53,978 bases of DNA from a virus (taxonomy: Duplodnaviria; Caudoviricetes), in the IMG/VR virus record IMGVR_UViG_3300035703_004045, positions 1 to 53,978 of that record; one strand, given 5' to 3'. A model generated the notes under the pieces. The model did no database searches. It had not been told where the DNA came from and saw only the letters and a program-made list of their open reading frames with translations. This document shows, piece by piece, positions 3,001 through 53,616 of the stretch. Positions within the stretch are counted from its first letter, which is position 1. Each line of letters begins with the position of its first letter. The position numbers and the translations under genes are program-made.

Positions 3001-3141
3001 GTTCTGTTGCGCAGAACTTGAATTCAAAGTGGATGAGACGACTTCAGCGACAACCCACTGGCGCCTCCTGACTTCGACCAGCTGTCCAGGCTCCGGACTG
3101 GTGCAGTAGGTGTGTTTTTGCTGTACAGCTGGTGTCTTCAT
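1..3141 (-). CDS. drmD: SNF2-like helicase, DISARM DrmD type
   Basis: 1046 aa; LIADDVGLGKT (Walker A), VVDEAH, TATP, LATDAASEGIDL, QRNGRIDR; N-terminus PEPGQLVEVRRRQWVV and size resemble DrmD. Confidence 0.8.
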   Translation of the reverse strand: MKTPAVQQKHTYCTSPEPGQLVEVRRRQWVVAEVVSSTLNSSSAQQNLVTLSSIDEDGLGEELEVIWEIEPGAQVIERAGLPTITGQDDSDTLKAFLDAVRWGAATNADRGFLQAPFRSGVSIEDFQLDPLVRAINMARVNLLIADDVGLGKTIEAGLVIQEMLLRHRARTVLIICPASLQEKWRVEMLEKFGLDFRVVDTAYIKQLRRDRGIHANPWTSHPRLIASMDWVKSGEGLRAMRDALPAHTSYPRKFDMLVVDEAHNIAPAAGANYALESQRTRFIRSISPHFQHRLFLTATPHNGYTESFTSLLELLDDQRFARNILPDEKQLGHVMIRRLKSDLVDAEGKPLYAQRKLQALLASYSPQERAIHQTLNDYCASREQDAEKVGNAFGTSFVNQLLKKRLFSSPAAFASTLEKHVASLANGSQRKDKDAMADRILRKAILRVEEDYANDQEVENAQSEAVEEASRRAQPLTAEQQQMLNELRSWAQTAKNQVDAKAKAILDWLKVNLKTDGQWNDRRVILFTEYRTTHQWMHEILASHGFGGDRLDILHGGMAQDEREKVKAAFQTSPKDSAVRILLATDAASEGIDLQNHCNCLIHLEIPYNPNVMEQRNGRIDRHGQREKEVLIWHPVDGGEQGKATIGGHGDDIIRALRKLESMRADMGSVNPVIAPQMSGLIEGSLKDLDTRLAEAKIAKARRFVRAERELKDRVAKLHERLLTTQQDFHLTPEHILMAVKTGLKLAGRPPLEPFALADAPAGTVFKMPALSGSWARCLEGLRHPHTLQIRPITFDHAVATGRDDVVLVHLNHRLVQMCLRLLRAEVWAQDDVKKLHRVTVRSVPDALIDGPAVVVISRLVVTGGNHHRLHEELTVAGGYLGDKAFRREEGVTKVQQWLDQAKPLTAADSLFDAIRVRFDHAQSAILQAVDTRSKDRLKFLTNTLQSRKQQEVADIGTVLNELEKAIQTELKKDQQPVQLSLFSEDERTQLRRDTAALEARLARIPAERQQEAEAIETRYAKLNDRTFPVAVIFLVPTSAFQGGAA

Positions 3142-7792: not shown

Positions 7793-8839
7793 CTAGGGTG
7801 TGCTGGAAGTGGTTGGGATGGTGGTTGGTAATGTCAATGTGCCCGAGGTAGCACGTTGCCCGTTGGCAATCACCGCCCGGTACATGCCGGTATAGTCGTA
7901 GCTGATGATGCTGTAGCGCAAATGTGGGTCGATGTTGTCAAACACATAGACACCGGTCTGCGCGTCACTCCAGACCTCGCGTGTCATGACTTTGCTGGTT
8001 TCGTCATAGAGTTGCACGCGCCTTTGTACCGGCACATCGGGTGTGCCTTTTTCTTTGACGGTACCTACAATACGACCGTTGCCACCAAACACATAATCGC
8101 GCCGGGTCAGGGTGGCACCGGCAAAGCGGGGTGGTGCGGGGTCCGGAAGGGTCAGTTGCGGCAAGTTGCTGTCGGTGCGACCGAGGATTGCGGGGAAAGC
8201 ACGATAGGTCGTATCCGCACCCTTTAATGCCAGTCGCGCCGCTGCCTCAATCGCTTGAACATCATCGAACGTAGCCACACCCGACCAAACACCAAGCGCA
8301 TGCAAATATTCATCGGCATCAAGGTTGTACTCGTTACCGTTGCCACCATAGCCAACTTGTCCAATTTGGTTCATCGTGTGACCACTGCCGATAGGGTTGC
8401 CAACCAAGTTTCCATCGACATAAAGAATGGAGTCCACGCCCCTTGTCACCATTGCCACAAAATATCGCTTCCCAATCTCGCCGTAACGACCGTAATTAGC
8501 ATGTGCGTTGTTACTTTGCGAATACCACCCATTGCCATCACTGGATAGGTGCAGGGCATAGCCACTGGTACTGTTGGGCGCATCTGATAGCAAAACATTC
8601 CGTCGCTTTGGAGTCCAGAATCCCGCAATCACACCCGTACTCGGAACCGGAACAGGGGTGGTCAGCAGCATGGGGTTGCCATTGCCTGCAACACCGATAA
8701 ATGCGTAGTCGTAAACCGATAACGCACTGGTTGCGGTAATGTGGTTCTCACCCACGCCATCGAGCAACTTTGCCCCGTCAATTCGGGTTGCGTCCCAGGC
8801 CGCAATCGGTGTTAATGAAGGTGCAGCGTTCCACCACAT
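7793..8839 (-). CDS. Putative tail fibre/receptor-binding protein (LamG-like N-domain, Ig-like C-domain)
   Basis: Start moved to MWWNAAP, 1 nt after upstream stop; LYVDG LamG-like segment; C-terminal GRIVGTVKE...GVYVFDNI. Confidence 0.55.
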   Translation of the reverse strand: MWWNAAPSLTPIAAWDATRIDGAKLLDGVGENHITATSALSVYDYAFIGVAGNGNPMLLTTPVPVPSTGVIAGFWTPKRRNVLLSDAPNSTSGYALHLSSDGNGWYSQSNNAHANYGRYGEIGKRYFVAMVTRGVDSILYVDGNLVGNPIGSGHTMNQIGQVGYGGNGNEYNLDADEYLHALGVWSGVATFDDVQAIEAAARLALKGADTTYRAFPAILGRTDSNLPQLTLPDPAPPRFAGATLTRRDYVFGGNGRIVGTVKEKGTPDVPVQRRVQLYDETSKVMTREVWSDAQTGVYVFDNIDPHLRYSIISYDYTGMYRAVIANGQRATSGTLTLPTTIPTTSSTP

Positions 8840-8840
8840 A

Positions 8841-10121
8841 TCACCACCACGGCCCGGTAATGTCCAGCGCCATAGCTGCACACGCACCTTGATTTTCGTA
8901 GCCCATCTTGACCATGAGGAACTTGCGCCCGGCATAGCCAACTACGTTCTCCACAATATCTAAATCTTGCAACGGGTAGTCGTTATGCACCCACATGAGT
9001 CCAGGCAATTTGCCGCGCAAACCCTTACCCCCTTCCTGCATCAGATAGGTCGGGTGCAGAATCAGCGAATAATCCACCGGATTGGGAAACGGGATGCCAG
9101 TGGCGCGACCACTGATGGTTTGCCCGTTATTGGTATTCAGCGATGTCAGCCCGACCCGCTGATTTCCTCCCAGCAGCGTATGGTCGCGCATCAAGATCTT
9201 GCCGGTGTAGTCGAGTGAGCGGTTGAACCAGTTATTGGTATCACCCCACGAGGTCGCACCATTGGCCGTAGTAAAGAAGTCAGACGCAGCCAACAGGGTG
9301 TTGTACGGATCGCCCTGACGAAAGCTCTCAAAGTCGGTAAAGCAATAGCCAGTTCTGCCATTGCCGCCACCTGTGGTGCCGTACTCGTTAAACAAATAAA
9401 AGCCCCGGTCGTCACCCACCAATACCCAGGGGCGACTGTAGTTTTCAATACCGGCACGCGCGGTGTCGCCGACCCACTGGTACATGTAAGAGCATTTGGC
9501 GTAGTACCATTTGTACCAGCCATCGACCACGGCTTCGCCTTCACCACTGGTGTGCCAGTTTTTATTCGGAGCCAGTGGATCAAACGGCGCTTGTGCCCCG
9601 ACCACGGTATCGATATCGGTCATGTCTTGCGCCATGCCGACCTTGGCTTTTTTGGCATAGGCGGTGTTATAGGCTGGCGCACAATCATTATCGACGCGCA
9701 AGTAAGGTCGGTTACTCAGCACGTTCTTACTGCGGTACACCGCTTTGTTGGTGCTACTGAACACCTTCTCAAAGCCCAACGGTGCAGCTTTGACTGTCAT
9801 GCTGTCGCCGGTGGCAGGTGTAGCAGGATTGCCTGCAATAGCATAGCTAAAGGTGGTGCCCGTCACTGTTAGCACCCGTACCTCGCCGATGTACTCTGTT
9901 TGCTCGGCACCCGAGATCAGCAGCACCTGATCAACCTGGTATAAGTGCCCACCATCTATCGTGACAGTAGCGATGCCATTGGCACTGCTGATGCTGGTGA
10001 TGGGTTTAAGGTTGAAGCCGTTCACCAGACAGGCATCGAGCAAGTCGACTAAACAACCCCAGCTATTGGTCAATTGCGGGGCGCCTTGCATTACGTTGGT
10101 GAAGTATTTAACCGCAGTCAT
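8841..10121 (-). CDS. Phage tail fibre-like protein
   Basis: Start at MTAVKYF with AAGGA RBS; GAPQL...LDACLVNGF N-terminus typical of tail proteins. Confidence 0.6.
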   Translation of the reverse strand: MTAVKYFTNVMQGAPQLTNSWGCLVDLLDACLVNGFNLKPITSISSANGIATVTIDGGHLYQVDQVLLISGAEQTEYIGEVRVLTVTGTTFSYAIAGNPATPATGDSMTVKAAPLGFEKVFSSTNKAVYRSKNVLSNRPYLRVDNDCAPAYNTAYAKKAKVGMAQDMTDIDTVVGAQAPFDPLAPNKNWHTSGEGEAVVDGWYKWYYAKCSYMYQWVGDTARAGIENYSRPWVLVGDDRGFYLFNEYGTTGGGNGRTGYCFTDFESFRQGDPYNTLLAASDFFTTANGATSWGDTNNWFNRSLDYTGKILMRDHTLLGGNQRVGLTSLNTNNGQTISGRATGIPFPNPVDYSLILHPTYLMQEGGKGLRGKLPGLMWVHNDYPLQDLDIVENVVGYAGRKFLMVKMGYENQGACAAMALDITGPWW

Positions 10122-19240: not shown

Positions 19241-19579
19241 ATGGATGCTTTATTGGCAGAAACCTCAATTGGTATTACTGAGCTGAAGAAGAATCCTTCG
19301 GCGGTGATTCGTGATGCTGGCTCTGAAACCATCGTTGTGTTGCATCACAACAAACCCTCTGCTTACCTCGTACCCGCAAGCACCTATGAAGCATTGATGG
19401 ATGTGCTGGATGATTTGCAGTTGATACCTGTGGTGCAGCAGCGTATTGCCGCGTGGCAAGCCGATCCTGACAACGTCATTGACGTCAGCAGGGCCGAGTT
19501 GGAAACCCTGGCTCGTGGTGGCAAAGCCAAGACATCGAAGCCACGCTCATCGGCCAAGGCTGGCTCTGCTGCTGCATGA
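19241..19579 (+). CDS. Phd/YefM (StbD/YafN-like) antitoxin
   Basis: SIGITELKKNPSAVI...VVLHHNKPSAYLVP; basic C-terminal extension. Confidence 0.85.
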   Translation: MDALLAETSIGITELKKNPSAVIRDAGSETIVVLHHNKPSAYLVPASTYEALMDVLDDLQLIPVVQQRIAAWQADPDNVIDVSRAELETLARGGKAKTSKPRSSAKAGSAAA

Positions 19580-19582
19580 GTT

Positions 19583-19933
19583 ATGGCCACATCTAGTTAC
19601 CGTTTACAGTTTTTACCCCAGGCCAAGGCGGAGTGGGACAAACTGGATGGCAGCGTCAGATCTCAATTTGCCAAAGTGTTGCTGCGTAGACTCGACGCCC
19701 CTAGAGTTCCCTCTGCGGCACTCACTTCCATGCCAGACTGCTACAAGATTAAACTGCGTACCAGCGGGTTTCGTTTGGTGTACCAAGTGCAGGACGATAA
19801 GCTGGTATTGCTGACGGTCGCTGTCGGTAAACGCGATAAAAGTGCGGTGTACGAGGCCGCTAAACTGCGCTTACCACCAACGCCCAGTGCCACAGATAAA
19901 TCGGTAGCACGCCGATCCAAATCACATAAATAA
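19583..19933 (+). CDS. RelE/StbE family toxin
   Basis: YRLQFLPQAKAEWDKLD...CYKIKLRTSGFRLVYQV...VAVGKRD. Confidence 0.92.
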   Translation: MATSSYRLQFLPQAKAEWDKLDGSVRSQFAKVLLRRLDAPRVPSAALTSMPDCYKIKLRTSGFRLVYQVQDDKLVLLTVAVGKRDKSAVYEAAKLRLPPTPSATDKSVARRSKSHK

Positions 19934-31300: not shown

Positions 31301-32544
31301 GCGCGTCTGCGACTTTTCCAAAGACGGCCATTTTCAATAGAGCGCATACGCTGGACTTTTCTCTCCAGACGAAACATGGCTTCTTCACGGTAGGCTGTCC
31401 ACGACACCCTCCAAGCACTTTGACTCAAAGATGGCCTGTCCTGGATAAGCTTTTCCTTGGCCGGACTGCGGTAAACCACGGGTTTGTAGCCCAGGCTACG
31501 CAGCAGCTCAACCATGGAGTCAATCAGCTTTCGATCTGTATTTCCAAACTCGCATCGTTTTCCATCCGGCGTGATGGATCCATCACTGTCCATCAAGCCG
31601 CGAACCAGCTCCAGTCGTTGGTTACGCCCAGCGCGCAAGTACGCATAGGGAACATGCTTGTTGCACAGGAGATCCAGTTTTCTCAAAAGTACAGAAAAAC
31701 GCGACGAACCGCAATCAGCGTGTGCCACACCTTCTTCGTCGACAACCCTAAACGTTGGGTCGATGACAACATTTGCGCACTTACCCTTGCGCCATTTCGG
31801 CAGTCGAAACAGCGCATCTACACCGCAATCAGCAAGGTGTCTGACGATGTCAGTGTCGTCTTCGTGAACGCTGATATGGTTCATCCATGCTGACCCATCG
31901 CCCAGCCACAAGCCTAAAAGGTAGGGGTGAATAGCCAGTGGACGATCTGGCAATTCAACTGGATCGCAAACATCCACTGAATAGCGCCAGCGCTTACCGT
32001 TTGTAAATCTTTCACGTCCAACCATGTCTCCGGTGGTCTTAATTCCAGACTTCATTCCGGCGTAGCTATATTCCCAAACTGGCCAACGATGGTCGCTATC
32101 GCAAACTACCGTTTCGCCATCTTCAAACTCGATCTCGTAGCATGGACGGTCGTTCCAAATTTCGGAGATGCCAATTACTCGGGTGGGCCATCCATCGGAG
32201 CCAAATACGTAGGAGCCTTCCGTAATTTCACCCATGGTCGTCCAACCAGTGGGCGTTGGCACAGGCGTTGACAGAGCTAGCGGTGCCCCGAGCTGCGCCG
32301 CCTTCATGAACACCACCCGTTCCACCGGCGAGTTGGGTGAGAGACAGTCCATAATCTCTTTCAGGTACGGCGTGCGACTGGTACGCCAGCGCCCGGGTTC
32401 CGCTGAGGCTTTGCTGGACAGCATGCGGTGCTGATCCGACCACTCGGAAACCGACAGCATCGGGTCCGGGGTCAGGCCATCGCGCCAAGCGCGCTCTATT
32501 TCGCTTGCGCCTTCGTAGTCATGGGTATCGTTTTCGGAATTCAT
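28354..32544 (-). CDS. Terminase large subunit (lambda gpA family) precursor with two inteins; about 675 aa after splicing
   Basis: GRWRTSRTPY, KAAQLGA/TEMG, LFLDEVD, STPT, CPHC/CESC, GADVQ, NEGLD/CYVYA; 1396-363-358=675 aa. Confidence 0.95.
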   Translation of the reverse strand: MNSENDTHDYEGASEIERAWRDGLTPDPMLSVSEWSDQHRMLSSKASAEPGRWRTSRTPYLKEIMDCLSPNSPVERVVFMKAAQLGAPLALSTPVPTPTGWTTMGEITEGSYVFGSDGWPTRVIGISEIWNDRPCYEIEFEDGETVVCDSDHRWPVWEYSYAGMKSGIKTTGDMVGRERFTNGKRWRYSVDVCDPVELPDRPLAIHPYLLGLWLGDGSAWMNHISVHEDDTDIVRHLADCGVDALFRLPKWRKGKCANVVIDPTFRVVDEEGVAHADCGSSRFSVLLRKLDLLCNKHVPYAYLRAGRNQRLELVRGLMDSDGSITPDGKRCEFGNTDRKLIDSMVELLRSLGYKPVVYRSPAKEKLIQDRPSLSQSAWRVSWTAYREEAMFRLERKVQRMRSIENGRLWKSRRRAIVAIRPVESVPVRCIAVDSPSHLFLCGKGWIPTHNTEMGSNWVGYVIHHAPGPMMAVWPTVDMAKRNSKQRIDPLIEESTALRELISPARSRDSGNTILSKEFRGGVLVMTGANSAVGLRSMPVRYLFLDEVDGYPLDVEGEGDAISLAEARTRTFNRRKIFIVSTPTISGVSAIEREYEASDQRRYFVPCPHCDHRQWLRFEQLRWEKSKPETAAYVCESCEQPIAEHHKTRMLELGQWRSMVDQASATNSKGRKKTAGFHLSSLYSPVGWRSWRDVAAAWESAVSKEAGSAAAIKTFKNTELGETWLEEGEAPDWQRLLERREDFRIGTVPLGGLLLVAGADVQKDRIEVSIWAFGRGKESWLVEHRVLMGDSAREAVWQRLAELLAERWSHASGAVMPLARMALDTGFATQEAYAFARRCHDPRLMPVKGVRSGAMGAAALIGTPTAVDVTQGGKKLRRGIKLYAVAVGMAKMEFYNNLRKAADVGSDGSTPIYPAGYVHLPKVDAEYVQQLCAESLITRHDRNGFAHREWQKMRERNEGLDCFDSQTEVLTYTGWKKFADLSHGEILATVNLNTDSIEYQSPLALISRHYKGPMLTVCGTRLNFSVTPNHRMVTYKKVFDRSVGKWRFDVPPEITLAKDLTIHHSIKILANWQGNKIIAVTIPASVKQRSTNVIHPQCRVCAKTFAEFLGWYVAEGSSRITVAGNSVLRAVLIAQKKPEGRARITELLERLPWLWHWTDTYATISCKQLYDYIQRECPGLCHEKRVPQWIKNADKDVIAAFLNGAVAGDGWIQNGYRSYATTSKLLADDIAELFFKLGGSPSVTMRLTNGWSIRGDSGNVTLPQYHVRENNGRKSAALDGKNRKFMVKERDYCGMVYCATVPNGTLVVRRAGKMMIAGNCYVYARAAASNVGLDRFEERHWRELEQQLGIAPPMAASAPSTTNVSLEIHANSETKSNNTLATTPSRRVIRSSWLKRQ
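28591..29664 (-). mobile_element. Intein 2 (class 1, 358 aa) with LAGLIDADG endonuclease, in terminase nuclease domain
   Basis: Starts CFDSQTEVLT; block B VTPNH; FLGWYVAEGS and FLNGAVAGDG; ends IAGN before Cys+1. Confidence 0.92.
31195..32283 (-). mobile_element. Intein 1 (class 3, 363 aa) with LAGLIDADG endonuclease, in terminase P-loop
   Basis: Starts PLALSTPVPTPTGW; DHRW, VRCIAV and PTHN/T give the WCT triplet; LLGLWLGDGS and LVRGLMDSDGS. Confidence 0.92.
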
Positions 32545-33092
32545 GCGTCCACGCTCACCGTTAAGTTTCCTAATTCCTGCAAGTGCTCGCGTACCGCGTT
32601 TTCCAGTGCCACGTGCATGGTATGGGCATCCAATTCCAACTTGGCAGCCATTTGGGCTGAAACCCGGGCTGGCCAGTTCAGCCAGGCATCACGTTCACTG
32701 CGTGCCAGTTTGAATACATGGGCTATGGCTTGCGGCCGATTGATCAGTTCGCCCTTGAGCCGAGCCAATCGCACCTTGTTGGTTTGCGCCTTGACCACTT
32801 CGTTGACCGTGCGGGCTTGTAGCAGTGAGGTGCCCCCGCCAGCCAAACCGGTGTTGGATGAGGTACCCGCTTTGTCAGTAGCGATATCAGGTTCTCGAAC
32901 CTTCACCCTGACAGCGTCTTGCTGCGTTCCGGTTTTAGGGGCACTGGTGTTGCGAACCCATTGGGCATCGGCGGCATCGGTGTCTATGGTGCCATCGGCC
33001 AGGGTCTGGATGCGACCGCTGCGGATGGCTTTATGGACTGCGGTGTCGGTCACCCCGCGGTGACGGGCGTAGGCGCGAATCGAGAGTCCCAT
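32541..33092 (-). CDS. Terminase small subunit (Nu1-like)
   Basis: N-terminal wHTH SIRAYARHRGVTDTAVHKAI; LARLKGELI; overlaps large subunit start. Confidence 0.8.
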   Translation of the reverse strand: MGLSIRAYARHRGVTDTAVHKAIRSGRIQTLADGTIDTDAADAQWVRNTSAPKTGTQQDAVRVKVREPDIATDKAGTSSNTGLAGGGTSLLQARTVNEVVKAQTNKVRLARLKGELINRPQAIAHVFKLARSERDAWLNWPARVSAQMAAKLELDAHTMHVALENAVREHLQELGNLTVSVDA

Positions 33093-33194
33093 GGCTGGTG
33101 TAGGTTTTCATGGCAAGGAGGTTTTTGTATCAACGTCAAACCGTGGCTTTATAGCCAATACCGAGGCAAAGATTCAAATCAATTCCGCAATCAG

Positions 33195-33235
33195 CTTGGC
33201 TTGTGAAGCAAACAGCGCGTTACTAGAGGTGTCGC
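33195..33235 (+). promoter_or_regulatory. Conserved upstream motif, copy 1
   Basis: CTTGGCTT-GTGAAGCAAAC-AGCGCGTT-ACTAGAGGTGTCGC; core ends 43 nt before ATG 33265. Confidence 0.75.
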
Positions 33236-33264
33236 GATTGACGACTAACGAAAGGAAAAACGCA

Positions 33265-33624
33265 ATGACTAGCATGACCATCACGATTGAACGCACCCCC
33301 CGCACCATTGAACTCAACGACAGCACTTTGCAAGTGACCGAGCTGGGTGTGAGCTTACCCTTCTCACGCAAGCCTTGTAACTTGAGCAAATTGGGCGGAG
33401 GCACACCGAGCAAGGTGCTGATTACTGAAACCCGCGAGATGACCCCGGCAGAGTTTGATGGGTTTGCATCCAGCCTGCTGCGCTCACGCCCCTGGCTCGC
33501 AGGACGCGGGGGTACTTTGCTTGAAGGCACCTTGTGCGTTGAGGTTTGCGCGCCGGGTCGACCCACGCTGTACATCAATCCTGAAGGTGGTGATTACGCC
33601 CGCTACGTCGCACGTCTGGGTTAA
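33265..33624 (+). CDS. Hypothetical cargo protein (119 aa)
   Basis: Start at MTSMTIT with AAGGA RBS; C-terminal LYINPEGGDYARYV. Confidence 0.75.
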   Translation: MTSMTITIERTPRTIELNDSTLQVTELGVSLPFSRKPCNLSKLGGGTPSKVLITETREMTPAEFDGFASSLLRSRPWLAGRGGTLLEGTLCVEVCAPGRPTLYINPEGGDYARYVARLG

Positions 33625-33653
33625 AGATTTATTTGAGTCAGAGGCTAAATTGA

Positions 33654-33694
33654 CTTGGCTTCTGAAGCAAACAGCGCGTTACTAGAGGCATCGC
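33654..33694 (+). promoter_or_regulatory. Conserved upstream motif, copy 2
   Basis: CTTGGCTT-CTGAAGCAAAC-AGCGCGTT-ACTAGAGGCATCGC; core ends 36 nt before ATG 33717. Confidence 0.75.
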
Positions 33695-33716
33695 AACAAA
33701 CAAACCTGAGATTGAA

Positions 33717-33926
33717 ATGAACACCAGCATTGAACAGATTTTTACCCTGATCGCCCAAAAGCATCTCTCCATTGAGACCTTGGAAACACGCCACGCGGAT
33801 CGGCTGGATTTCCACGATGTCGCAGTCTGGAATCTGCGAGAAGCCCTGCAAGCAGCCTTTATGGCCGGAGCTGAGTTGGGTGCGCGCATGCCAAAGCCAA
33901 CCGAGTCAGAAATTGCCAACATTTAA
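33717..33926 (+). CDS. Small cargo protein (DUF6900-like)
   Basis: IETLETRHADRLDFHDVAVWNLREALQAAF. Confidence 0.75.
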   Translation: MNTSIEQIFTLIAQKHLSIETLETRHADRLDFHDVAVWNLREALQAAFMAGAELGARMPKPTESEIANI

Positions 33927-33963
33927 AACCACTTGAAACCACTTTTTTAAATAGGAGCATCAC

Positions 33964-34536
33964 ATGAGCACCATTAGCCTTAACCCAACCCAGCACGCCG
34001 TGCTGGCCTATGCCATCCATAACACCCACGGACGGATTGACTGGTTTCCCGACAACATCAAAGGCGGCGCACGCCAGAAGGTATTGCAAGGTCTGTTTAA
34101 CCGTGCCTTGGTTACCCCCAATAGCGAGAATTGGTTGGTTGCTGCCGAGGGCTACGACGCCCTGGGCTGTGCCAGACCTGGTGCAACCAGCATATCCCCT
34201 AATCCGGAGTTAGAGGCCCCCAACGCGCCAACACAGGCCACCTTGGCGCAAGATATGGTGGACAGCCAAACGGATACCAGCGTAGCAGAGTCATTGCCCA
34301 GCGCCTTGCCCGCTACCAGGGTGGTTCGTAGCCGCGAGCACAGTAAGCAGGCCACCATCATCAATATGCTGCAACGCGCCGAAGGGGCGACGATTACGCA
34401 GATTTGCGAAGCAACTGGCTGGCAACCACATACTGTGCGCGGAACCTTTGCAGCCGCCCTAAAGAAGAAGCTGGGCATGACCATCTGCTCCGACAAGCAG
34501 CAAGGTGGCGAGCGTATCTATCGTGCAACGGTCTAA
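33964..34536 (+). CDS. DUF3489-like winged-helix protein
   Basis: SKQATIINMLQRAEGATITQICEATGWQPHTVRG; AGGAG RBS. Confidence 0.8.
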   Translation: MSTISLNPTQHAVLAYAIHNTHGRIDWFPDNIKGGARQKVLQGLFNRALVTPNSENWLVAAEGYDALGCARPGATSISPNPELEAPNAPTQATLAQDMVDSQTDTSVAESLPSALPATRVVRSREHSKQATIINMLQRAEGATITQICEATGWQPHTVRGTFAAALKKKLGMTICSDKQQGGERIYRATV

Positions 34537-34564
34537 AAAATGATGCAGAAGTCAGTCAAATTTG

Positions 34565-34605
34565 CTTGGCTTCTCGATTGAATAGCGCGTTACTAGAGGT
34601 GTCGC
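34565..34605 (+). promoter_or_regulatory. Conserved upstream motif, copy 3
   Basis: CTTGGCTT-CTCGATTGAAT-AGCGCGTT-ACTAGAGGTGTCGC; core ends 35 nt before ATG 34627. Confidence 0.75.
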
Positions 34606-34626
34606 AACCACCACCATCCAAGTACC

Positions 34627-34851
34627 ATGAAACACCATCAGAATCCATCACACCAGCGCACACTGCAACGCGGTGACCGCGTGGCCTACTACCTTGACCG
34701 CCGTATCAGCACAGGCCATCACAGCAGTCGCACCATCCCAGTACGCCGCGGCGGCATCGTCCAAGGATTTCGGGATGGACAAGTGCTGGTGTTGCACCGA
34801 GCAGGCTACACCGAATCATTACCAGAGGCGCAACTCTACTTCGTCGAATGA
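34627..34851 (+). CDS. Small hypothetical cargo protein (possible SH3-like barrel)
   Basis: 74 aa filling the gap between motif copies 3 and 4; LQRGDRV...GIVQGF. Confidence 0.55.
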   Translation: MKHHQNPSHQRTLQRGDRVAYYLDRRISTGHHSSRTIPVRRGGIVQGFRDGQVLVLHRAGYTESLPEAQLYFVE

Positions 34852-34873
34852 TGCAAACAAAGCCAAGAATAAG

Positions 34874-34914
34874 CTTGGCTTCTGCAGCGAGCAGCGCGTT
34901 AATACAGACATCGC
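34874..34914 (+). promoter_or_regulatory. Conserved upstream motif, copy 4
   Basis: CTTGGCTT-CTGCAGCGAGC-AGCGCGTT-AATACAGACATCGC; core ends 36 nt before ATG 34937. Confidence 0.75.
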
Positions 34915-34936
34915 AACCAACCACAGGAAGATTAAA

Positions 34937-35305
34937 ATGACCCATACAACAGCCACTCTTGCCAGTTGTAACCAGGATTGGGGTTTTTGGGGTACCATGC
35001 AAACGCATGCGACCCTTGCCTGGCCCATGGCAATGAACGCGATTGCTGCTGCTACCGGCTGCGAGCCGGAACAAGTGCGCGCGTTTTTAGACAGCCGCCA
35101 TGGTCGCCACTTCGCCGACGATGTGAACAACGCACTTTATTTGGGTGCAGACTTGCCCAATGCTATCGAGCAAGCCACGCAGAAATGGATGACTTGGACG
35201 ATTGGTCGCAACACTGCCAAGGAGTACGGCATACCACGCGGCATGGCTTACTTGACCGGCTTTGTGGTGTATTGCGGGATGCAGGAAGAGGAACTGGCGA
35301 ATTAA
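34937..35305 (+). CDS. Hypothetical cargo protein (122 aa)
   Basis: Start at MTHTTAT with AGGA RBS; NQDWGFWGTM, FLDSRHGRHFADDV. Confidence 0.75.
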   Translation: MTHTTATLASCNQDWGFWGTMQTHATLAWPMAMNAIAAATGCEPEQVRAFLDSRHGRHFADDVNNALYLGADLPNAIEQATQKWMTWTIGRNTAKEYGIPRGMAYLTGFVVYCGMQEEELAN

Positions 35306-35306
35306 C

Positions 35307-35804
35307 TCAATGGATCCCACCACCAGCCACTAACTCTCGCACAGCAGAATCTGGCGTGCCTGCACCTTTAAAGAGTGGCCCACATGGCACGCCAGCCAAC
35401 TTCAGCGATAACGACAAGGGGTCAATAAGACCAACTCGATCCCGGAATACCTCGCCAAGAAATGAAAACTCATTCAGGATGCCGATTAAACTGCGGTTCG
35501 CGGTTTTGGCGTAGAGCACTTCACCCATGCCATCAATCTCGGCTTGAATGAAATCAGCAGGCAGATCCAAAGCCTGCAGCACGTCTTTCAAGGCAGCAGG
35601 AAATCGCTTCGCCAATGTGGCAGCAGGAGCCAGAGGCATCACCACAGGCAACAGCGTGCGCTCATTGACCAACAGCGCCATTTGAGGCTTCCAAAACAAT
35701 GCCGTGGCATACCAGTTTCCCAATCTCGTGGTGGGGGTGCAGGGCGCCACAAGCTCCGGATGAATTCGGTCGAGTAGTTTTTTGGTGCAATGAAGCGTGA
35801 ACAT
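35307..35804 (-). CDS. Hypothetical protein (DUF6933-like)
   Basis: LHCTKKLLDR...LGNWYAT...LLVNERTLLPV; 8 nt downstream of Fic gene. Confidence 0.75.
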   Translation of the reverse strand: MFTLHCTKKLLDRIHPELVAPCTPTTRLGNWYATALFWKPQMALLVNERTLLPVVMPLAPAATLAKRFPAALKDVLQALDLPADFIQAEIDGMGEVLYAKTANRSLIGILNEFSFLGEVFRDRVGLIDPLSLSLKLAGVPCGPLFKGAGTPDSAVRELVAGGGIH

Positions 35805-35812
35805 GGTGACCC

Positions 35813-36943
35813 TCAGACCTGATTGCCCAATGGCGCTAATTCATAACTGGTACTGCGACCGCTCGCAGCGGATTTGTTGAGCATGCCTCGCTCCAACAGT
35901 TCAGAAATATCTCGCAGAGCCGTGTCTTGTGAGCATTTGGCTATCGCCGCCCACTTGCTGCTGGTCAGTTTGCCGTCAAAGCCATCGAGCAATTTGTTGA
36001 GCAGTTTGATCTGCCGCTCGTTCATCGACATGCCCGACCAGTGTTGCCAAAACCGCGTTTTTGCCAGCACCAATGCCAGTGTTTCTTCGGCCCCTTGAAC
36101 GGCTCGAAGCAGGCATCCCAGAAACCATTCCAGCCAACCGGTGACATCCATGTTGCCTTTTTGCGTGGCCTCCAGCCGTTCATAGTAATCGTTGCGCTCG
36201 CGCTGAATCTGGGCCGACAGGCTATAGTACCGCTGAGTGGATTGCTCTGCACGTGCCAGCGCCATGTCACCCACCGCCCGTGCAATCCGCCCATTGCCAT
36301 CATCAAAGGGGTGCAGCGTTACCAGCCACAAGTGTGCCAATCCTGCTTTGATGACAGGATCGTCGTATTGGTCAGTGTTGAACCAACTTAAGAAGTTCTG
36401 CATTTCTGCATCCAGCACATGCGCAGGCGGTGCTTCAAAATGAACTTTCTGGCGGTGCATAGCGCCTGAGACCACTTGCATCGGTCCTAGTGCATCATCG
36501 CGCCATTGTGCGACTCGGATTTTGCTCAAACCACTGTAACCCGTTGGAAACAACGCCGCATGCCAGCCGTACAAACGCTCTGCATCTAAAGGAGCGTCGT
36601 AGCGTTGGGTTGCATCCAGAACCATATCCACAACGCCTTCGACTTGTCGGTCTGTGGCTGCCAGGGCGCCAATGTCTACGCCCAATCGGCGCGCAATAGA
36701 TGAGCGTACCGAAGCCGGATTGAGTTGTTCGCCTTCGATCTCACTGGTTTTGAGGACATCTTCGGTCAGGACGCGCAAAGTAGCCTGATCGCGCAAATCC
36801 AGCCCCAAATCATGCATCCGTCCTAACAGATGTCCTTGCGCGCGGTGTACTTGTGCCAGCAAGGGTGCCAGCCGCTGGCGGTCATAAACCCAGTGCGGCC
36901 AATGTTCGTGTTGCCAGATATAGTTTTTATCTTCGCATTGCAT
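35813..36943 (-). CDS. Fic family protein (DUF4172 N-domain, C-terminal HTH)
   Basis: Canonical HPFDDGNGRIAR; TSEIEGE; C-terminal SQDTALRDISEL. Confidence 0.93.
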   Translation of the reverse strand: MQCEDKNYIWQHEHWPHWVYDRQRLAPLLAQVHRAQGHLLGRMHDLGLDLRDQATLRVLTEDVLKTSEIEGEQLNPASVRSSIARRLGVDIGALAATDRQVEGVVDMVLDATQRYDAPLDAERLYGWHAALFPTGYSGLSKIRVAQWRDDALGPMQVVSGAMHRQKVHFEAPPAHVLDAEMQNFLSWFNTDQYDDPVIKAGLAHLWLVTLHPFDDGNGRIARAVGDMALARAEQSTQRYYSLSAQIQRERNDYYERLEATQKGNMDVTGWLEWFLGCLLRAVQGAEETLALVLAKTRFWQHWSGMSMNERQIKLLNKLLDGFDGKLTSSKWAAIAKCSQDTALRDISELLERGMLNKSAASGRSTSYELAPLGNQV

Positions 36944-38754: not shown

Positions 38755-40219
38755 CGATGGGCTCCTGCGGGCTATCTGTCAACGTAGTGCCTCGTCGCCT
38801 TTGTGCGACTTGTGCGAAGGTTTCACCGGTACTGGCCAGGGTCATCGGCACACCGGGGAAGTTTTGCTCAAAGCGTAGTAGCGCCACATCGACGTACTGC
38901 GGTGCAATCTCGACTGCGCGACCGAGGCGACCCGTGCGCTGTGCAGCCATCAGGGTGGTGCCACTGCCGCTAAAGGGTTCGAACACCACTTCACCTTCTT
39001 CGGTATAGGCTTCGATCATCTGCAGCGGTAGCGTGACGGGAAACACTGCCGGGTGGTCGATGTCTTTGCCGATTTTGCCTTTGTGGCGCATGACCCGAAT
39101 CACCGAATCGGGGATGCGGTAGTCCTGAGTGGGCTGTCCGGCTGCTGTCCAACGATGAACCTGTCCATCCTTGCCGCGCAGGGCGGTCGACGTTCCATCG
39201 GCGCGCAAATGCGATTCTTGCCCTGCGTGTTTACACGGTACGGTTTTATGAGGTTTGCGGCTCTGGCGATTGAAGTGAAAGATAAATTCAAAACTCGGTG
39301 CCAGTCGCCCCTGCCAGTCACCCGGCATGCCGGGACCTTGATCCCAGACGTACCAGGCAAAGCGACGCCAGCCTTGGTTGCGCATCCAGCTCAGCCACTG
39401 ATCCCAATAGGGCTGCACTTCGTTATCGCGGTGAATCAAACCCAGATTGACCAGAACCTGGCCATCCTCAGCCATGGGCAGTTGGGCAAACACGCCACGC
39501 ATCAAACCATCCCAATCCGCAATGCCACCGGTGGTGTAATCACGCTGGTTGCCATAGGGCGGTGAGGTAAAGCACAGTGCTGCGCGATCAGACTGCATCA
39601 GGGTAGTAATGACTGCCGCTTCACTGGCATCACCACAGATTAGTCGGTGTGCGCCCAATAGCCAGAGGTCACCGGTTTGCGAGACTGCGGCAATCGGGGC
39701 TTCGGGGATCTGGTCTGCGGTGTCTGAATTATGCTCGGTATCCTGTGAATCGGCAGCATCTTGTTCCTGCTCGGCACTGTTACTTTCGCCATCTCCCTCG
39801 CCATGAATATCTTCAGCCAGCAGGCTTTGGATTTCTGCATCTTCCAAACCAGTCAGCGTCAAGTCGTAGCCGCTCTCGCACAGGTCAGTCAGTTCCAGCG
39901 CCAGCATGGCTTCGTCCCAACCGGCTTCCAAGGCGATTCGGTTGTCGGCGATGATGTAGGCGCGTTTCTGCGTGGGTGATAAGTGTGCCAACTCAATCAC
40001 TGGCACCTGACTCAAGCCGAGTTGGCGCGCTGCTGCCAGGCGTCCATGCCCGGAAATGAGACCATTGTCACCATCGACCAGCAGTGGGTTCGTCCAGCCA
40101 AACTCGACGATGCTGCCAGCAATCTTGGCGATCTGTGCTGCATCATGGGTGCGCGGGTTGCGAGCGTAAGGTATCAGGGTCTCAATCGAGCGGTATTCGA
40201 TCTGTGGTTGACTGATCAT
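38741..40219 (-). CDS. ParB-like domain fused to N4/N6 DNA methyltransferase (SPPY type)
   Basis: PYARNPRTH...ISGHGR; FTSPPY; HPAVFP; EPFSGSGTT. Confidence 0.92.
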   Translation of the reverse strand: MISQPQIEYRSIETLIPYARNPRTHDAAQIAKIAGSIVEFGWTNPLLVDGDNGLISGHGRLAAARQLGLSQVPVIELAHLSPTQKRAYIIADNRIALEAGWDEAMLALELTDLCESGYDLTLTGLEDAEIQSLLAEDIHGEGDGESNSAEQEQDAADSQDTEHNSDTADQIPEAPIAAVSQTGDLWLLGAHRLICGDASEAAVITTLMQSDRAALCFTSPPYGNQRDYTTGGIADWDGLMRGVFAQLPMAEDGQVLVNLGLIHRDNEVQPYWDQWLSWMRNQGWRRFAWYVWDQGPGMPGDWQGRLAPSFEFIFHFNRQSRKPHKTVPCKHAGQESHLRADGTSTALRGKDGQVHRWTAAGQPTQDYRIPDSVIRVMRHKGKIGKDIDHPAVFPVTLPLQMIEAYTEEGEVVFEPFSGSGTTLMAAQRTGRLGRAVEIAPQYVDVALLRFEQNFPGVPMTLASTGETFAQVAQRRRGTTLTDSPQEPIDATV

Positions 40220-40231
40220 GAAATGGGCATT

Positions 40232-40265
40232 AAAAAACCCACCGGCATTAGCAATGCGAGTGGGT
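40232..40265 (-). terminator. Intrinsic terminator at the entry to the late operon (tR'-like)
   Basis: Minus strand ACCCAC-TC-GCATT-GCT-AATGC-CG-GTGGGT followed by T5. Confidence 0.65.
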
Positions 40266-40284
40266 CGGTTTAAATTTGAGTAAG

Positions 40285-40457
40285 AGGTTTGCGCAAACCT
40301 GTGTCTAGCGCAAACTTCTTAGTGCAAACCTAAATAAAGTAACGGGGTGGTTTGCAGTGTGCTCATGACTGGGGTTTGCGCTGAAATCACCAGTTTGCCA
40401 AGGGCGAACGTGCTGCAAACCAGGCTAGCTGGTGCAAACCTGCAAACCCTGCAAACC
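40285..40457. repeat. Cluster of GCAAAC repeats (putative cosB-like terminase binding sites)
   Basis: 11 GCAAAC/GTTTGC hexamers counted in about 170 bp, including the 16-bp palindrome AGGTTTGCGCAAACCT. Confidence 0.8.
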
Positions 40458-40487
40458 TGTTTTTACGGTTTGTCGGTGGGCGAATCT

Positions 40488-40530
40488 TGCGCTGCTTCCC
40501 CCCGCATAGGATTTTGCGAAAGAAGGACCC
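40488..40530 (-). other. Putative cosQ/cosN packaging site
   Basis: Minus strand GGGTCCT (same as lambda cosQ), then TGCG-GGGGGAAGCAG-CGCA with partial twofold symmetry. Confidence 0.6.
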
Positions 40531-40722
40531 CTTTTACCTGGGGCGCGGCGCGAAGTGTTAGCGATAAATTCACGGTTTTTGCCAACCATAGCGATAAATG
40601 TACCGTAATTTCTGTAATTTGTTCACTGCTATTTTGATGCTCAAAAGGACAAGCTGGCTAAAGGCGGGACAAGTGGGGCAAGCGTTACGCTACTTGCCCC
40701 ATGGTCTTGGAACTGTTGCGAT

Positions 40723-41139
40723 TCAGCGCTGCTGCAATCGAGAGCTTGGCTGCTCTTGATTGAGCCTTTCTGACAGCAGTTCGAGACACTTATGCCACAG
40801 TTGCCACGCAGAGGTTCTGCCCATGCCAAACCGGGTACAGATGTCACGCCAGCCGTACCGATTGGCACGCATCCAGACCAGGTGCCGTTGCTCAACCTCC
40901 AGCCACTGCACCCAGCGCATGACTTCCAGCATGTCATCAATGTCCTTGGGTGAGGGTGGAATACGCAAAACAGGACGGTCTTCGGTTGCCAGCAACTCCC
41001 ATTGGCAGCGCACAATGGTGGGCCATGCGTTGAAGTAGCCCTGCACGTTGGCAGAAGGCAGCCGCCGAGCCGTCAAAGCAGCATCAACAAAGCGGTTGGC
41101 TATCGTCTCCGGTGTCCAGAGGATATGGGGCTCAGCCAT
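40723..41139 (-). CDS. DUF6362-like HTH protein, candidate late regulator/antiterminator
   Basis: Start at MAEPHIL with AAGGAGG RBS; sigma region 4-like WRDICTRFGMGRTSAW; occupies the Q position. Confidence 0.65.
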   Translation of the reverse strand: MAEPHILWTPETIANRFVDAALTARRLPSANVQGYFNAWPTIVRCQWELLATEDRPVLRIPPSPKDIDDMLEVMRWVQWLEVEQRHLVWMRANRYGWRDICTRFGMGRTSAWQLWHKCLELLSERLNQEQPSSRLQQR

Positions 41140-51395: not shown

Positions 51396-51581
51396 TAGGT
51401 GATTTCTGAAAAAAGCAATTGTTGTAAATTTACATCGTTTGTATGAATGTGCAATGCATCTCAGTATTGGTATACCGGTGCGTGAATCTTGATCGCGTTA
51501 CCTCACCTTGCCCTACGTTGCGCACCATCTTGGGCGATTTGAATCATGATTGGCGGGTCTTTTCTATGCCCCCTGCCAACC

Positions 51582-51767
51582 ATGAAACCCATACTTCTCA
51601 CCCCTCCAGACAGGCTATCAGCAGCCCAGCGCGCGTTTGAAATCACCACCATCCTGGCTGCAGCTATTGTGCGTACCTACAACAGTGACATACAAGCCAC
51701 AGACGCTAAAGAAAGACAAGTTCGACTTGGCTTTTCTGGTCAGAAGCGCGTTCATAGCAACCCCTAA
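51582..51767 (+). CDS. Small hypothetical protein upstream of the integration module
   Basis: MKPILL...EITTILAAAIVRT; 3' end overlaps motif copy 5; weak RBS. Confidence 0.45.
   Translation: MKPILLTPPDRLSAAQRAFEITTILAAAIVRTYNSDIQATDAKERQVRLGFSGQKRVHSNP
51726..51756 (+). promoter_or_regulatory. Conserved upstream motif, copy 5
   Basis: CTTGGCTT-TTCTGGTCAGA-AGCGCGTT-CATA; core ends 32 nt before ATG 51785. Confidence 0.7.
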
Positions 51768-51784: not shown

Positions 51785-52237
51785 ATGAACGACACCCCAT
51801 CTGTTGCTGCCCAAGTGGCTGCGTTACCCACATTGCCGATGCAAGAACTCTGGACGATATGGGATCGGTATTTTCAACGGCGTCCTGACAAAACCAATCG
51901 CAGTTATATCGAGTCCAAGGTGGCTTACAAACTTCAAGAGGCTGCATACGGCGGATTGTCCGAACAGACAAAACGCAAGTTGATCAACATCGGTATGCGC
52001 CACTCCAAAATTAAAGGCAGACAATTACCGCGTGAAATTGAACTGGCACCCGGTACCGTGTTGATTCGTGAATGGGCGGAGCGTGACCACAAAGTGACCG
52101 TTACTGCCACAGGTACCTTTGAATACGATGGCCAGCATTTCAAAAGCCTTACCGCCGTAGCCCGTCACATTTCCGGCACCCATTGGTCTGGCCCCTTGTT
52201 TTTTGGCCTCAAAAACAAGCACAAGGAGTCAGCATGA
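51785..52237 (+). CDS. DUF2924-like protein
   Basis: AYKLQEAAYGGL, PGTVLIREW, FKSLTAVARHISGTHWSGPLFFGL. Confidence 0.85.
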   Translation: MNDTPSVAAQVAALPTLPMQELWTIWDRYFQRRPDKTNRSYIESKVAYKLQEAAYGGLSEQTKRKLINIGMRHSKIKGRQLPREIELAPGTVLIREWAERDHKVTVTATGTFEYDGQHFKSLTAVARHISGTHWSGPLFFGLKNKHKESA

Positions 52238-53616
52238 ACGCATCCAGCCAGATTGCATCACCCAAACCCAGAAAACGGTGTGCCGTGTACTGCCGCGTAT
52301 CCAGCGATGAGCGCTTGGATCAAGAGTTCAACTCGATCGATGCCCAAAAAGAAGCCGGGCATGCCTATGTAGCAAGCCAACGCGCTGAGGGCTGGATTCC
52401 GGTGGCTGATGATTATGACGATCCTGGCTACTCCGGTGGCAACACCGAACGCCCTGGACTCAAACGCTTGCTGGCTGACATTGAGCGCAGCCAGATCGAC
52501 ATCGTTGTGGTCTATAAAATTGACCGGCTCACCCGCAGTCTGGCGGATTTTTCCAAAATGGTCGAAGTGTTTGAGCGCCAAGGCGTGTCCTTTGTATCCG
52601 TCACACAGCAGTTCAACACCACCACCTCCATGGGGCGCTTGATGCTGAACGTACTGTTGTCGTTTGCCCAGTTCGAGCGCGAAGTGACCGGTGAGCGCAT
52701 TCGCGACAAAATTGCCGCCAGCAAACGCAAAGGACTCTGGATGGGTGGTGTGCCGCCTCTGGGCTACAACGTGGTGAACCGACAGTTGGTCATTAACGAA
52801 AAAGAAGCCGAACTGGTGCGACGTATCTTTGGCGAAATGCTCACCATTGGTTCGCCCACCCGCATTGCAGAAGGGCTGAATAATGAAGGCATCACGACCA
52901 AAGCCTGGACAACCCAAGAGGGGCAAGAACGTGCTGGTACCCAGATAGACCGCAAGTACCTGTATAAACTGCTGCGCAACCGCATGTATTTGGGTGAGCT
53001 ATCGCACAAGGGAACTTGGTTTACCGGTGCACACGAGGCCATTATTGACCAGGGATTGTGGGGTAGGGTGCAGGAAGTCATCCAGCGTGACCCACACCAA
53101 AGGTCGGTAGAGACCCAGACCCGGGGCAAAACGGATGCGCTATTGCGCGGGCTGCTCTACAGCTCCTCTGGTGAGCCAATGTATCCGACCTACGCCAGCA
53201 AGAACAAGGTCAAGTATCGCTATTACGTATCCAGGTCGGAAATGAAGTTTGGACCGAATAGCAAAACGCATGTTCGCATACCCGCAGCAGAAATTGAAGC
53301 CGCAGCGGTGGCTCAAATACTGACTGTACTCAGCAGCCCAGAGTCCATTGCAACTGTCTGCAAAAGGGTAGAAGCCTGTGATACACCGCTGCGTGAGGAT
53401 GCAGTGGTTATGGCGATGCATCGCTTGGGCCAGGTGTGGTCGCAGCTCTATCCGCTGGAACATGTCCGGATTGTGAAATTAATGATTGAACGGATTGATT
53501 TGGTTGATGGCGGCATCAAGATCAAATGGCACTCACTGGGCTGGAAGGCGCTGATCCAAGAGTTTGCTGTTAATAGCATCGGTTCAGAACTGGTCGAGTC
53601 GGAGATTTTGGCATGA
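52234..53616 (+). CDS. Large serine recombinase (integrase)
   Basis: Start at MNASSQ with AAGGAG RBS; AVYCRVSS, DRLTRS, FAQFERE, PPLGY, HEAII. Confidence 0.95.
   Translation: MNASSQIASPKPRKRCAVYCRVSSDERLDQEFNSIDAQKEAGHAYVASQRAEGWIPVADDYDDPGYSGGNTERPGLKRLLADIERSQIDIVVVYKIDRLTRSLADFSKMVEVFERQGVSFVSVTQQFNTTTSMGRLMLNVLLSFAQFEREVTGERIRDKIAASKRKGLWMGGVPPLGYNVVNRQLVINEKEAELVRRIFGEMLTIGSPTRIAEGLNNEGITTKAWTTQEGQERAGTQIDRKYLYKLLRNRMYLGELSHKGTWFTGAHEAIIDQGLWGRVQEVIQRDPHQRSVETQTRGKTDALLRGLLYSSSGEPMYPTYASKNKVKYRYYVSRSEMKFGPNSKTHVRIPAAEIEAAAVAQILTVLSSPESIATVCKRVEACDTPLREDAVVMAMHRLGQVWSQLYPLEHVRIVKLMIERIDLVDGGIKIKWHSLGWKALIQEFAVNSIGSELVESEILA

Follow-up and report, generated by a model that had tools for sequence, protein, structure and literature searches.

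Introduction

Repeated regulatory sites are known from several phages and plasmids. Phage lambda has a set of CII-dependent promoters (pRE, pI, and pAQ) that combine poor core elements with a common activator site, and the T4 MotA/AsiA middle promoters are read once a phage factor has re-targeted the host polymerase. Cluster A mycobacteriophages carry stoperators, 13-bp sites spread across lytic operons that act on elongation, and the leading region of the IncN plasmid pKM101 contains CUP repeats, which are longer and plasmid-borne. In T4-type phages, promoter-early stem-loop (PeSL) cassettes consist of a strong sigma-70-like promoter and a terminator stem-loop, as described by Arbiol et al. 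2010 (PMC2839356). Here we describe a bipartite motif, CTTGGCTT-N11-AGCGCGTT, that heads an array of small genes in the AcaML1-like provirus record IMGVR_UViG_3300035703_004045 of IMG/VR. We refer to the whole analyzed stretch, 53,978 bases, as the window.

This locus shares features with each of these systems and differs from each. As in the PeSL cassettes, short conserved promoter-like units are repeated before small genes of unknown function, and recombination between copies inserts, deletes, and replaces genes (PMC2839356). The motif here differs from PeSL units in having a non-canonical -10 and no stem-loop or terminator; moreover, the phage is temperate, part of the array is a conserved core, and a further copy of the signal precedes the integration operon. 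Like the CII promoters, a small set of putative promoters would couple the integrase to lysogeny-side genes, antisense to lytic transcription. However, the sequences are unrelated, each genome has 3–9 copies and a cassette array, a search for a CII homologue found none, and dependence on an activator is suggested here by sequence comparison. Stoperators and CUP repeats are likewise asymmetric, orientation-bound repeats that link many small genes to one element-encoded regulator, whereas the copies described here occur only on the anti-lytic strand and have full promoter geometry. Compared with the appropriation of polymerase by extracytoplasmic function (ECF) or other sigma-type factors, the locus has a CGTT-type -10 and a phage protein modeled as similar to sigma region 4, but no sigma factor bearing region 2 was detected, and the -35 box is unlike GGAAC or the MotA box.

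We found no published description of this motif class in the literature retrieved under the DUF names, AcaML1, and both box strings, some of which was accessible in excerpt. The phage family is common and almost unstudied. A 30-bp signal tied to both an integrase and a two-headed predicted DNA-binding protein would offer a handle on the choice and maintenance of lysogeny, could provide a portable and possibly orthogonal promoter/regulator pair, and presents a clean natural case of promoter-bounded cassette exchange in temperate phages.

Conservation and distribution of the motif

The motif is a real, widespread, and strongly selected feature. We interpret it, with moderate confidence, as the core of a private promoter/operator class of AcaML1-like temperate phages, one that probably depends on a phage protein and that doubles as a recombination seam. 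This interpretation is built on the observed conservation and geometry of the motif, its restriction to prophage contigs, and its position at cassette junctions, together with modeled protein folds; from these we infer a transcription start, a binding protein, and a timing of expression.

Five exact copies occur in the window, all on the + strand. A first-pass annotation of the letters alone had reported four of these (33195, 33654, 34565, and 34874), each 35–43 nt ahead of an ATG, with a conserved tail ending in TCGC and antisense to the late operon. All four were found as claimed: they lie 43, 36, 35, and 36 nt from motif end to ATG, all have the tail, and every gene flanking the array is on the - strand. 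The fifth copy (51726), which had been overlooked, lacks this tail and precedes an operon of DUF2924 and a large serine recombinase by 32 nt. Allowing up to one mismatch, the whole record contained five forward matches, no reverse matches, and none for a reversed-pattern control. With up to three mismatches, the window contained six matches compared with 0.72 expected, and none of 100 shuffles reached six. The sixth match, at 16530 with three mismatches, falls within the tape-measure gene and is probably due to chance. At copy 4 only, box 1 is also present in inverted form 6 nt upstream (34860-34867, - strand), giving AAGCCAAG-aataag-CTTGGCTT.

Across relatives, conservation extends beyond the two boxes. 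An exact-pattern scan of viral contigs found the motif in at least 161 stretches, many with two to seven copies, and the full signal can be written as g-CTTGGCTT-c-N5-cGAAC-AGCGCGTT-(CA or AC)-T. Among 240 unique copies, the conserved positions not forced by the search pattern were T29 (237), C18 (219), A16 (202), G-1 (201), C27 (195), A28 (194), C8 (186), and A17 (180). The first half of N11 is free, and 324 unique cores had 214 distinct N11 sequences. A start codon lies 30–44 nt past the motif in 177 of 249 copies followed by an open reading frame (ORF), 123 of them at 35–39 nt; a further 35 "starts" at 0–4 nt are an artefact of ATG arising from CAT+G. We also observed a recurrent one-mismatch variant ending in GTG, mostly CTTGGCTT...CCAACAGCGCGTG, in genomes G005, G006, G012, G013, and G015, with a similar copy in G009; in five genomes, this variant is on the array-bearing contig, ~15–16 kb from the array.

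The association with the phage family holds when loci are chosen independently of the motif. An alignment of protein B, the DUF3489 protein of the array, served as the query against genome contigs, and 80 loci were kept. All 80 contained at least one exact motif on the strand of B (one copy in 2 loci, two in 16, three in 36, four in 22, and five in 4). These prophages include those of Rhodoferax, Comamonas, Hydrogenophaga, Ralstonia, Cupriavidus, and Pandoraea, as well as Xanthomonadales, Pseudomonas indica, Ectothiorhodospira, a Nitrospira assembly, and others. More broadly, exact copies occur in prophages of Burkholderiales, Xanthomonadales, Acidithiobacillus, and others, with four copies in Acidithiobacillus phage AcaML1 and eight in the Ralstonia plasmid pm01.

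Exact copies in whole host genomes were confined to few contigs in all 12 genomes, chiefly those holding an array, and the reversed-pattern control gave 0–1 matches per genome. For example, one host had all five of its copies within 58.8–109.1 kb of a 4.3-Mb chromosome. Only six of 401 evenly sampled Pseudomonadota genomes had the exact motif (three with 7–8 copies and three singletons), and the control was found in none. This confinement to prophage contigs and rarity in the genome sample make a host regulon very unlikely. At the same time, 16 of 16 bases are unchanged from Acidithiobacillus to Ralstonia to the Nitrospira assembly. The sequences flanking the motif were no more alike within genomes (0.47–0.58) than between genomes (0.52–0.62), which we interpret as purifying selection on the boxes rather than recent copying. 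Homogenization of flanks within genomes was not seen in general, copies 1 and 2 of the window being a local exception.

Promoter geometry of the motif

The first-pass annotation had proposed that the motif is a dedicated, co-regulating promoter with a fair -35 and a non-canonical -10. Comparison among relatives bears out a promoter-like signal, with fixed orientation, fixed distance to the start codon, and -35/-10 geometry. Read in this way, TTGGCT matches the sigma-70 -35 at four of six positions and is separated by a 17-bp spacer from GTTCAT or GTTACT, neither of which has an A at -11. T at -7 is present in 237 of the 240 copies, but -11 is always T, and none of the other frames of the motif logo has A-11 together with T-7. 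The motif has an A-rich upstream flank, and 193 of 240 copies carry a purine seven bases past the -10. The motif always points towards its gene, and in pm01 a divergent pair heads divergent genes. Nothing upstream of the first motif of an array is able to transcribe it. A consensus scan of both strands of 32900-35900 found no sigma-70-type promoter (1.7 expected), and a scan of the same interval found no terminator-like site between cassettes. Invariant bases run into the spacer (GAAC, AGCGC), for a total of ~20 positions. A -10 without A at -11 and this many invariant positions across host classes suggest that recognition would require a phage-encoded DNA-binding protein.

An intermediate relative helps to separate the two boxes. 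Locus L251, in which B is 41% identical, keeps the geometry and GCGTTCAT but has changed four bases of box 2 (positions 18–21). Its two copies have identical box 2 sequences and different -35 boxes, CTTGGCTTT and CTTGATGAT, one of which is CTTGAT. This pattern points to box 2 as the phage-specific element and argues somewhat against a -35-reading sigma-4 domain as the reader.

Taking these observations together, the proposed mechanism is as follows. CTTGGCTT would occupy the position of the -35 element (TTGGCT), and (c)GAAC-AGCGCGTT-(CA/AC)-T would form the end of the spacer and the -10 (GTTCAT or GTTACT, with 17 bp between hexamers). Transcription would start ~7 nt past the invariant T, on a purine, producing a CA-rich leader (~27 nt) that contains a Shine-Dalgarno sequence. 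Each small gene in a module set antisense between the modification and packaging genes would be served by one unit of this kind, and the DUF2924/serine-recombinase operon by one more. Since units head both the array and the integration operon, the two loci may form one regulon transcribed against the lytic genes. The reader would be B, autoregulating and possibly acting with DUF6900, or, as second candidate, the sigma-region-4-like protein DUF6362. The identical 27–40-bp units could also act as recombination substrates for adding, deleting, and moving cassettes.

Other known signal types were considered and rejected. Sigma-54, sigma-32, RpoE, FliA, LexA, CtrA, and MerR-type spacer operators misfit in spacing or bases when compared by eye with consensus sequences. 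The array is not a moron, as it has promoter-like units but no terminators and its guanine-cytosine content over 32–36 kb (0.545–0.547) is like that of the rest of the window. Nor is it an integron array, since the recombinase is a large serine recombinase, the motif lies upstream with promoter geometry, and there is no hairpin covariation. A hairpin or cruciform formed by N11 was rejected on the same absence of covariation (Z -3.4 to 0.7 for varying pairs, and 0 for three pairs involving a fixed box position). Rfam gave no match in the window.

Candidate reading proteins

We rank B first among candidate readers and DUF6362 second, with the host polymerase alone as a minor rival. The model of B has two winged-helix domains joined by a disordered linker of ~50 residues. 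Its N-terminal domain aligned with RuvB domain III, MarR, and TubR (VIA-align Z 8–9.5), and its C-terminal domain aligned at similar Z with NolR, BirA, and NiaR. Most of the invariant residues of B fall in the predicted recognition helices. In the window, B has no motif of its own and starts 37 nt after DUF6900, but it has its own motif in most relatives. Two arrays lack B, yet it is present elsewhere in the complete record. In a distant relative (L260:6259-6912, +), one 217-aa ORF contains the N-terminal winged helix, DUF6900 in the position of the B linker, and DUF3489, a fusion suggesting that the DUF6900 protein (C) and B probably act together.

DUF6362 is the alternative candidate reader, or else a candidate late-gene regulator, and 48 of the 50 loci with a length of 18 kb or more encode it. 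The model of its C-terminal half aligned mostly with sigma factors, which make up at least 20 of the 23 best VIA-align rows (Z 6.5–8.5), and Foldseek placed the same sigma chains first, at E 0.3–2. The protein atlas gives one DUF6362 cluster the automatic name "RNA polymerase subunit sigma family", and Sigma70_ECF is found in 12% of the members of another. Among the 52 window ORFs scanned, no Pfam sigma domain was found at E 0.001. Foldseek searches of the PDB gave no match at E <= 0.001 for the model of either protein, and we note that the winged-helix and sigma-4 readings draw on VIA-align rows that are consistent but middling.

Both proteins extend beyond genomes with the motif. DUF6362 was found in 52 and B-like proteins in 61 of the 401 sampled genomes. 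The three genomes with multi-copy motifs have the three best B scores and also top DUF6362 scores. In a profile search for DUF6362 homologues, the best 120 of 2172 were all near relatives, 52–63% identical, with no distant clade among them.

A non-coding gap of 500 nt separates DUF6362 from the first methylase gene (40219-40723, read on the - strand). Roughly eight GGTTTGCA/GTTTGCG repeats are found in it, along with a hairpin and then a T-run immediately ahead of the methylase ATG. Possible roles for the gap are an iteron origin or a late control region that includes a terminator.

Weighing of alternative explanations

Several observations weigh against a phage-protein-dependent promoter class. 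The -10 assignment is drawn purely from geometry. Because copy 5 is embedded in a conserved ORF, some of its conservation, including that of N11, may be coding. In more distant relatives, B has one promoter of ordinary appearance (CTTGAT...TATGGT), with no repeats of it found in 10 such relatives (one copy each at >=60% ungapped identity); the sigma-70-like appearance of these promoters makes a mechanism using the host polymerase alone possible. Fold matches for B and DUF6362 are middling (Foldseek E 0.03–2). Finally, B-like proteins occur in 58 sampled genomes without a multi-copy motif and DUF6362 in 49 without an exact motif, and B and DUF6362 are both core and diverge in parallel, so their co-occurrence does not discriminate between them.

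Among the alternatives, a phage sigma-like route is possible but, in our judgment, improbable. DUF6362 from the early (-) operon, alone or with a partner, would redirect host RNA polymerase to the motif, and the array and integrase operon would be "middle" or establishment genes expressed after early transcription, like those of the lambda CII promoters. Many ECF promoters carry a CGTT-type -10, and the motif has CGTT at -13 to -10 and a -10 without sigma-70 features, consistent with this route, as are the modeled region 4 fold, the sigma-related atlas clusters, and the core status of DUF6362. However, the -35 box is CTTGGCTT and only a region-4-like fold is seen: region 2 was not detected, the N-terminal half being one helix and low-confidence loops. 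The L251 copies share box 2 and differ in the -35 box, which is not expected of a -35-reading domain. The gene adjoins a non-coding gap and late-side genes, the classic place of a late regulator, the window has no - strand copy of the motif, and 49 of the 52 DUF6362-positive genomes lack exact copies. We think it unlikely that the units are instead ordinary off-consensus host sigma-70 promoters that need no phage factor, kept as useful strong promoters and spread by recombination. The 4/6 match of TTGGCT, 17-bp spacer, T at -7, purine at +1, A-rich upstream flank, and the CTTGAT-N-TATGGT-like promoters of distant B orthologs would fit such promoters, and similar shuffling is known for the PeSL cassettes, which are strong sigma-70-like promoters in T4-type phages (PMC2839356). 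Against this, A at -11 is absent in every frame tried, the consensus scan of 32900-35900 found none, and the ~20 invariant positions include GAAC and AGCGC in the spacer, which are outside a sigma-70 reading. All 16 bases are also retained from Acidithiobacillus through Ralstonia to the Nitrospira assembly, and the flank comparison indicates selection on the boxes instead of recent copying.

Two further readings concern functions other than promotion. The motif could be a crossover site for the serine recombinase and DUF2924, with integron-like cassettes and the recombinase-adjacent copy as the primary site. We regard this as very improbable, even though a copy directly precedes the recombinase operon in every complete record examined, cassette junctions fall inside the motif, and box 2 contains a GAAC-N5-GTTC dyad. 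The orientation and fixed 30–44-nt distance to the start codon suit an expression signal, the dyad has an odd 5-nt center and 4-bp arms of which the left is degenerate in the window, and copy 5 lies within a coding ORF. Homologous exchange over 17–40 identical bases explains the junctions equally well, 36 of 64 junctions leave motif number unchanged, and some insertions are motif-free. Least probable of these explanations is an RNA-level signal in read-through transcripts, such as a processing, anti-termination, or translational operator site before each cistron. The lack of terminators between cassettes means that internal copies are probably transcribed, and the start-codon distance is fixed, but N11 shows no base-pair covariation, Rfam has no match, and neither the first copies of arrays nor divergent pairs lie downstream of a promoter that could transcribe them. 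The motif also ends 30–44 nt from the ATG, too distant to occlude the ribosome site.

Cassette exchange at the motif

The idea that the repeats allow cassettes to be gained and lost is borne out by comparison of close relatives. A locus common to Pigmentiphaga, Cupriavidus, and Pandoraea is equivalent to the Ralstonia mannitolilytica locus minus one 356-bp unit (L232 versus L240), and this unit is bounded by two motif copies. The locus without the unit has the upstream flank and N11 of copy 1 and the downstream flank of copy 2, which places the crossover inside box 2. In high-identity array pairs, 560 of 1431 alignment starts were within 40 nt upstream of a motif. As with the modular indels of PeSL cassettes, 28 of 64 indel junctions alter motif number. 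The remaining 36 junctions leave motif number unchanged, and some insertions have no motif, suggesting that the motif is a frequent seam and not the sole one.

The window itself contains a putative local exchange. Copies 1 and 2 are identical at 10 of 11 N11 positions and alike over most of the tail, and they look like a recent duplicate. Given this likeness, the cassette of gene D was probably moved to the front of the array by exchange within the motif.

Array composition

We surveyed 81 arrays and counted gene presence over the 50 loci of at least 18 kb (Table 1). The usual order is [DUF6900][B][D, optional][A], and the window has [D][C-B][K][A]. Accessory cassettes interrupt this order at varying places and comprise a dozen or more small families and singletons. 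NCBIfam gave no match for any of the five array genes of the window; a search of solved structures gave no informative match for D, C (DUF6900), or A (best E 0.08), and the protein atlas gave no usable match for A.

The first-pass annotation had described a modular, co-regulated array of cargo genes, with anti-defense or host-takeover functions as candidates. The modular part holds for the variable add-ons, but the core (DUF6900, DUF3489, and two unknown families) is conserved and is not free cargo. We found no support for cargo, anti-defense, or host-takeover functions: four of the five array genes are from families found repeatedly in these phages, mostly in fixed order, one encodes the tandem winged-helix protein B, predicted to bind DNA, and the motif also heads the integration operon. 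The array instead resembles a regulatory module of the lysogeny side to which some variable cassettes have been added.

Integration operon and position against late genes

The motif also precedes the DUF2924/recombinase genes outside the array in pm01 and AcaML1, as in the window. In the window, copy 5 coincides with the last codons of a conserved small ORF. Homologues of this ORF in AcaML1 (Gp5, 53% identity) and pm01 (RS25160, 37% identity) are annotated as hypothetical, and the family shares a ...SAxxRxxEITTILAAAIVR... core. From this arrangement, the integration operon probably has an internal, putative motif promoter and an upstream promoter as well. Box-2-like sequences are also present on the + strand of the early/integrase intergenic region, where CTTGAT is directly followed by CGCGTTAC (51487-51505) and AGCGCGCGTT is found at 51627-51639; these may be extra binding sites or chance matches.

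At its other end, the array abuts the packaging genes. Motif copy 1 is 102 nt from the start of terS on the opposite strand; among 73 relatives, 66 have their first motif closer than 100 nt to a terS start located by tblastn. This spacing leaves little room for a separate terS promoter, and late transcription probably runs antisense through the array. To enter the packaging and structural genes, it would then cross 1.5–3 kb with two to seven identical opposing promoters. A speculative extension, which we consider doubtful, is that the array is a switch instead of a cargo set, in which, while the regulon is on, convergent polymerases, B bound at every copy, or both would block entry into terS and set lysogeny against particle production. 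If so, the two winged-helix heads of B might read the -35 and -10 boxes like the domains of a small sigma factor, the integrase would be co-expressed with the regulon, and B would be a specificity factor or repressor of a kind unrelated to CI or sigma-70.

Table 1. Positions of motif copies and associated genes in the window.
Feature	Position	Strand	Description
Large terminase, 1396 aa	28354-32544	-	LAGLIDADG_3 matches at ~residues 309-360 and one further stretch
Small terminase gene terS	32541..33092	-	Divergent from motif copy 1
Motif copy 1	33195..33235	+	Boxes 33195-33202 and 33214-33221, tail to TCGC; heads 119-aa gene
Cassette gene D, 119 aa	33265..33624	+	No Pfam, PHROG, or NCBIfam match; semi-core, 25/50 loci
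Motif copy 2	33654..33694	+	Heads DUF6900 and DUF3489
Cassette gene C, DUF6900, 69 aa	33717..33926	+	Pfam; 36/50 loci
Gene B, DUF3489	33964..34536	+	Predicted N-terminal winged helix 1-70, disordered linker, C-terminal DUF3489 winged helix 124-190
Motif copy 3	34565..34605	+	Exact match
Accessory cassette gene K, 74 aa	34627..34851	+	Rare family, 3/81 arrays
Motif copy 4	34874..34914	+	Exact match
Core cassette gene A, 122 aa	34937..35305	+	phrog_8020; 49/50 loci
DUF6362 core protein, 138 aa from internal ATG	40723..41139	-	C-terminal half folds like sigma region 4 (model)
Conserved small ORF, ~61 aa from second ATG	51582..51767 (opens 51546)	+	3' end (last codons) is motif copy 5
Motif copy 5	51726..51752	+	32 nt 5' of DUF2924 ATG
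DUF2924 gene and large serine recombinase	51785-52237; 52183-53616	+	Integration operon behind copy 5

Phage family and neighboring genes

Pfam and PHROG scans of 52 window ORFs identified a temperate tailed phage whose nearest named relatives are AcaML1 and Ralstonia prophages or plasmids. Morphogenesis genes include a lambda-type portal, capsid E protein, gpA terminase, and tape-measure protein. Genes for DNA metabolism include a D5-type primase/helicase, a RuvC-like resolvase, a Cas4-type exonuclease, and three DNA methylases, two of which have ParB-like N-termini. An M15 peptidase, a Fic protein, and a Phd/ParE pair are also present, and no CI-type repressor was recognized among these ORFs. 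Nearly all genes are on the - strand, the + strand holding only the toxin-antitoxin pair, the cassette array, and the DUF2924/recombinase operon, which is near one end of the window. The window shares with AcaML1 and its Ralstonia relatives the order methylases (-), small + strand genes, and terS-terL (-); this synteny, together with DUF2924 and the large serine recombinase, places it in the AcaML1-like family.

Some neighboring genes stand apart from the motif. The Phd/ParE toxin-antitoxin pair lies inside the tail module (19241-19933, +), and a Fic/DUF4172 protein and DUF6933 adjoin the array (35307-36943, -); none of these has a motif, and they are possible accessory genes. In the large terminase, the LAGLIDADG_3 matches precede the ATPase match (best stretch from residue 450), and the region looks like an intein or homing-endonuclease insertion. 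In AcaML1 (JX507079.1, L167; regions 2664-3125 and 8349-8882), a motif at 2870 precedes a + strand DUF6900 homologue (2970-3122). This homologue overlaps Gp33 on the opposite strand, annotated as "terminase small subunit"; the window terS matches Gp23 instead. The AcaML1 annotation in these regions may need revision.

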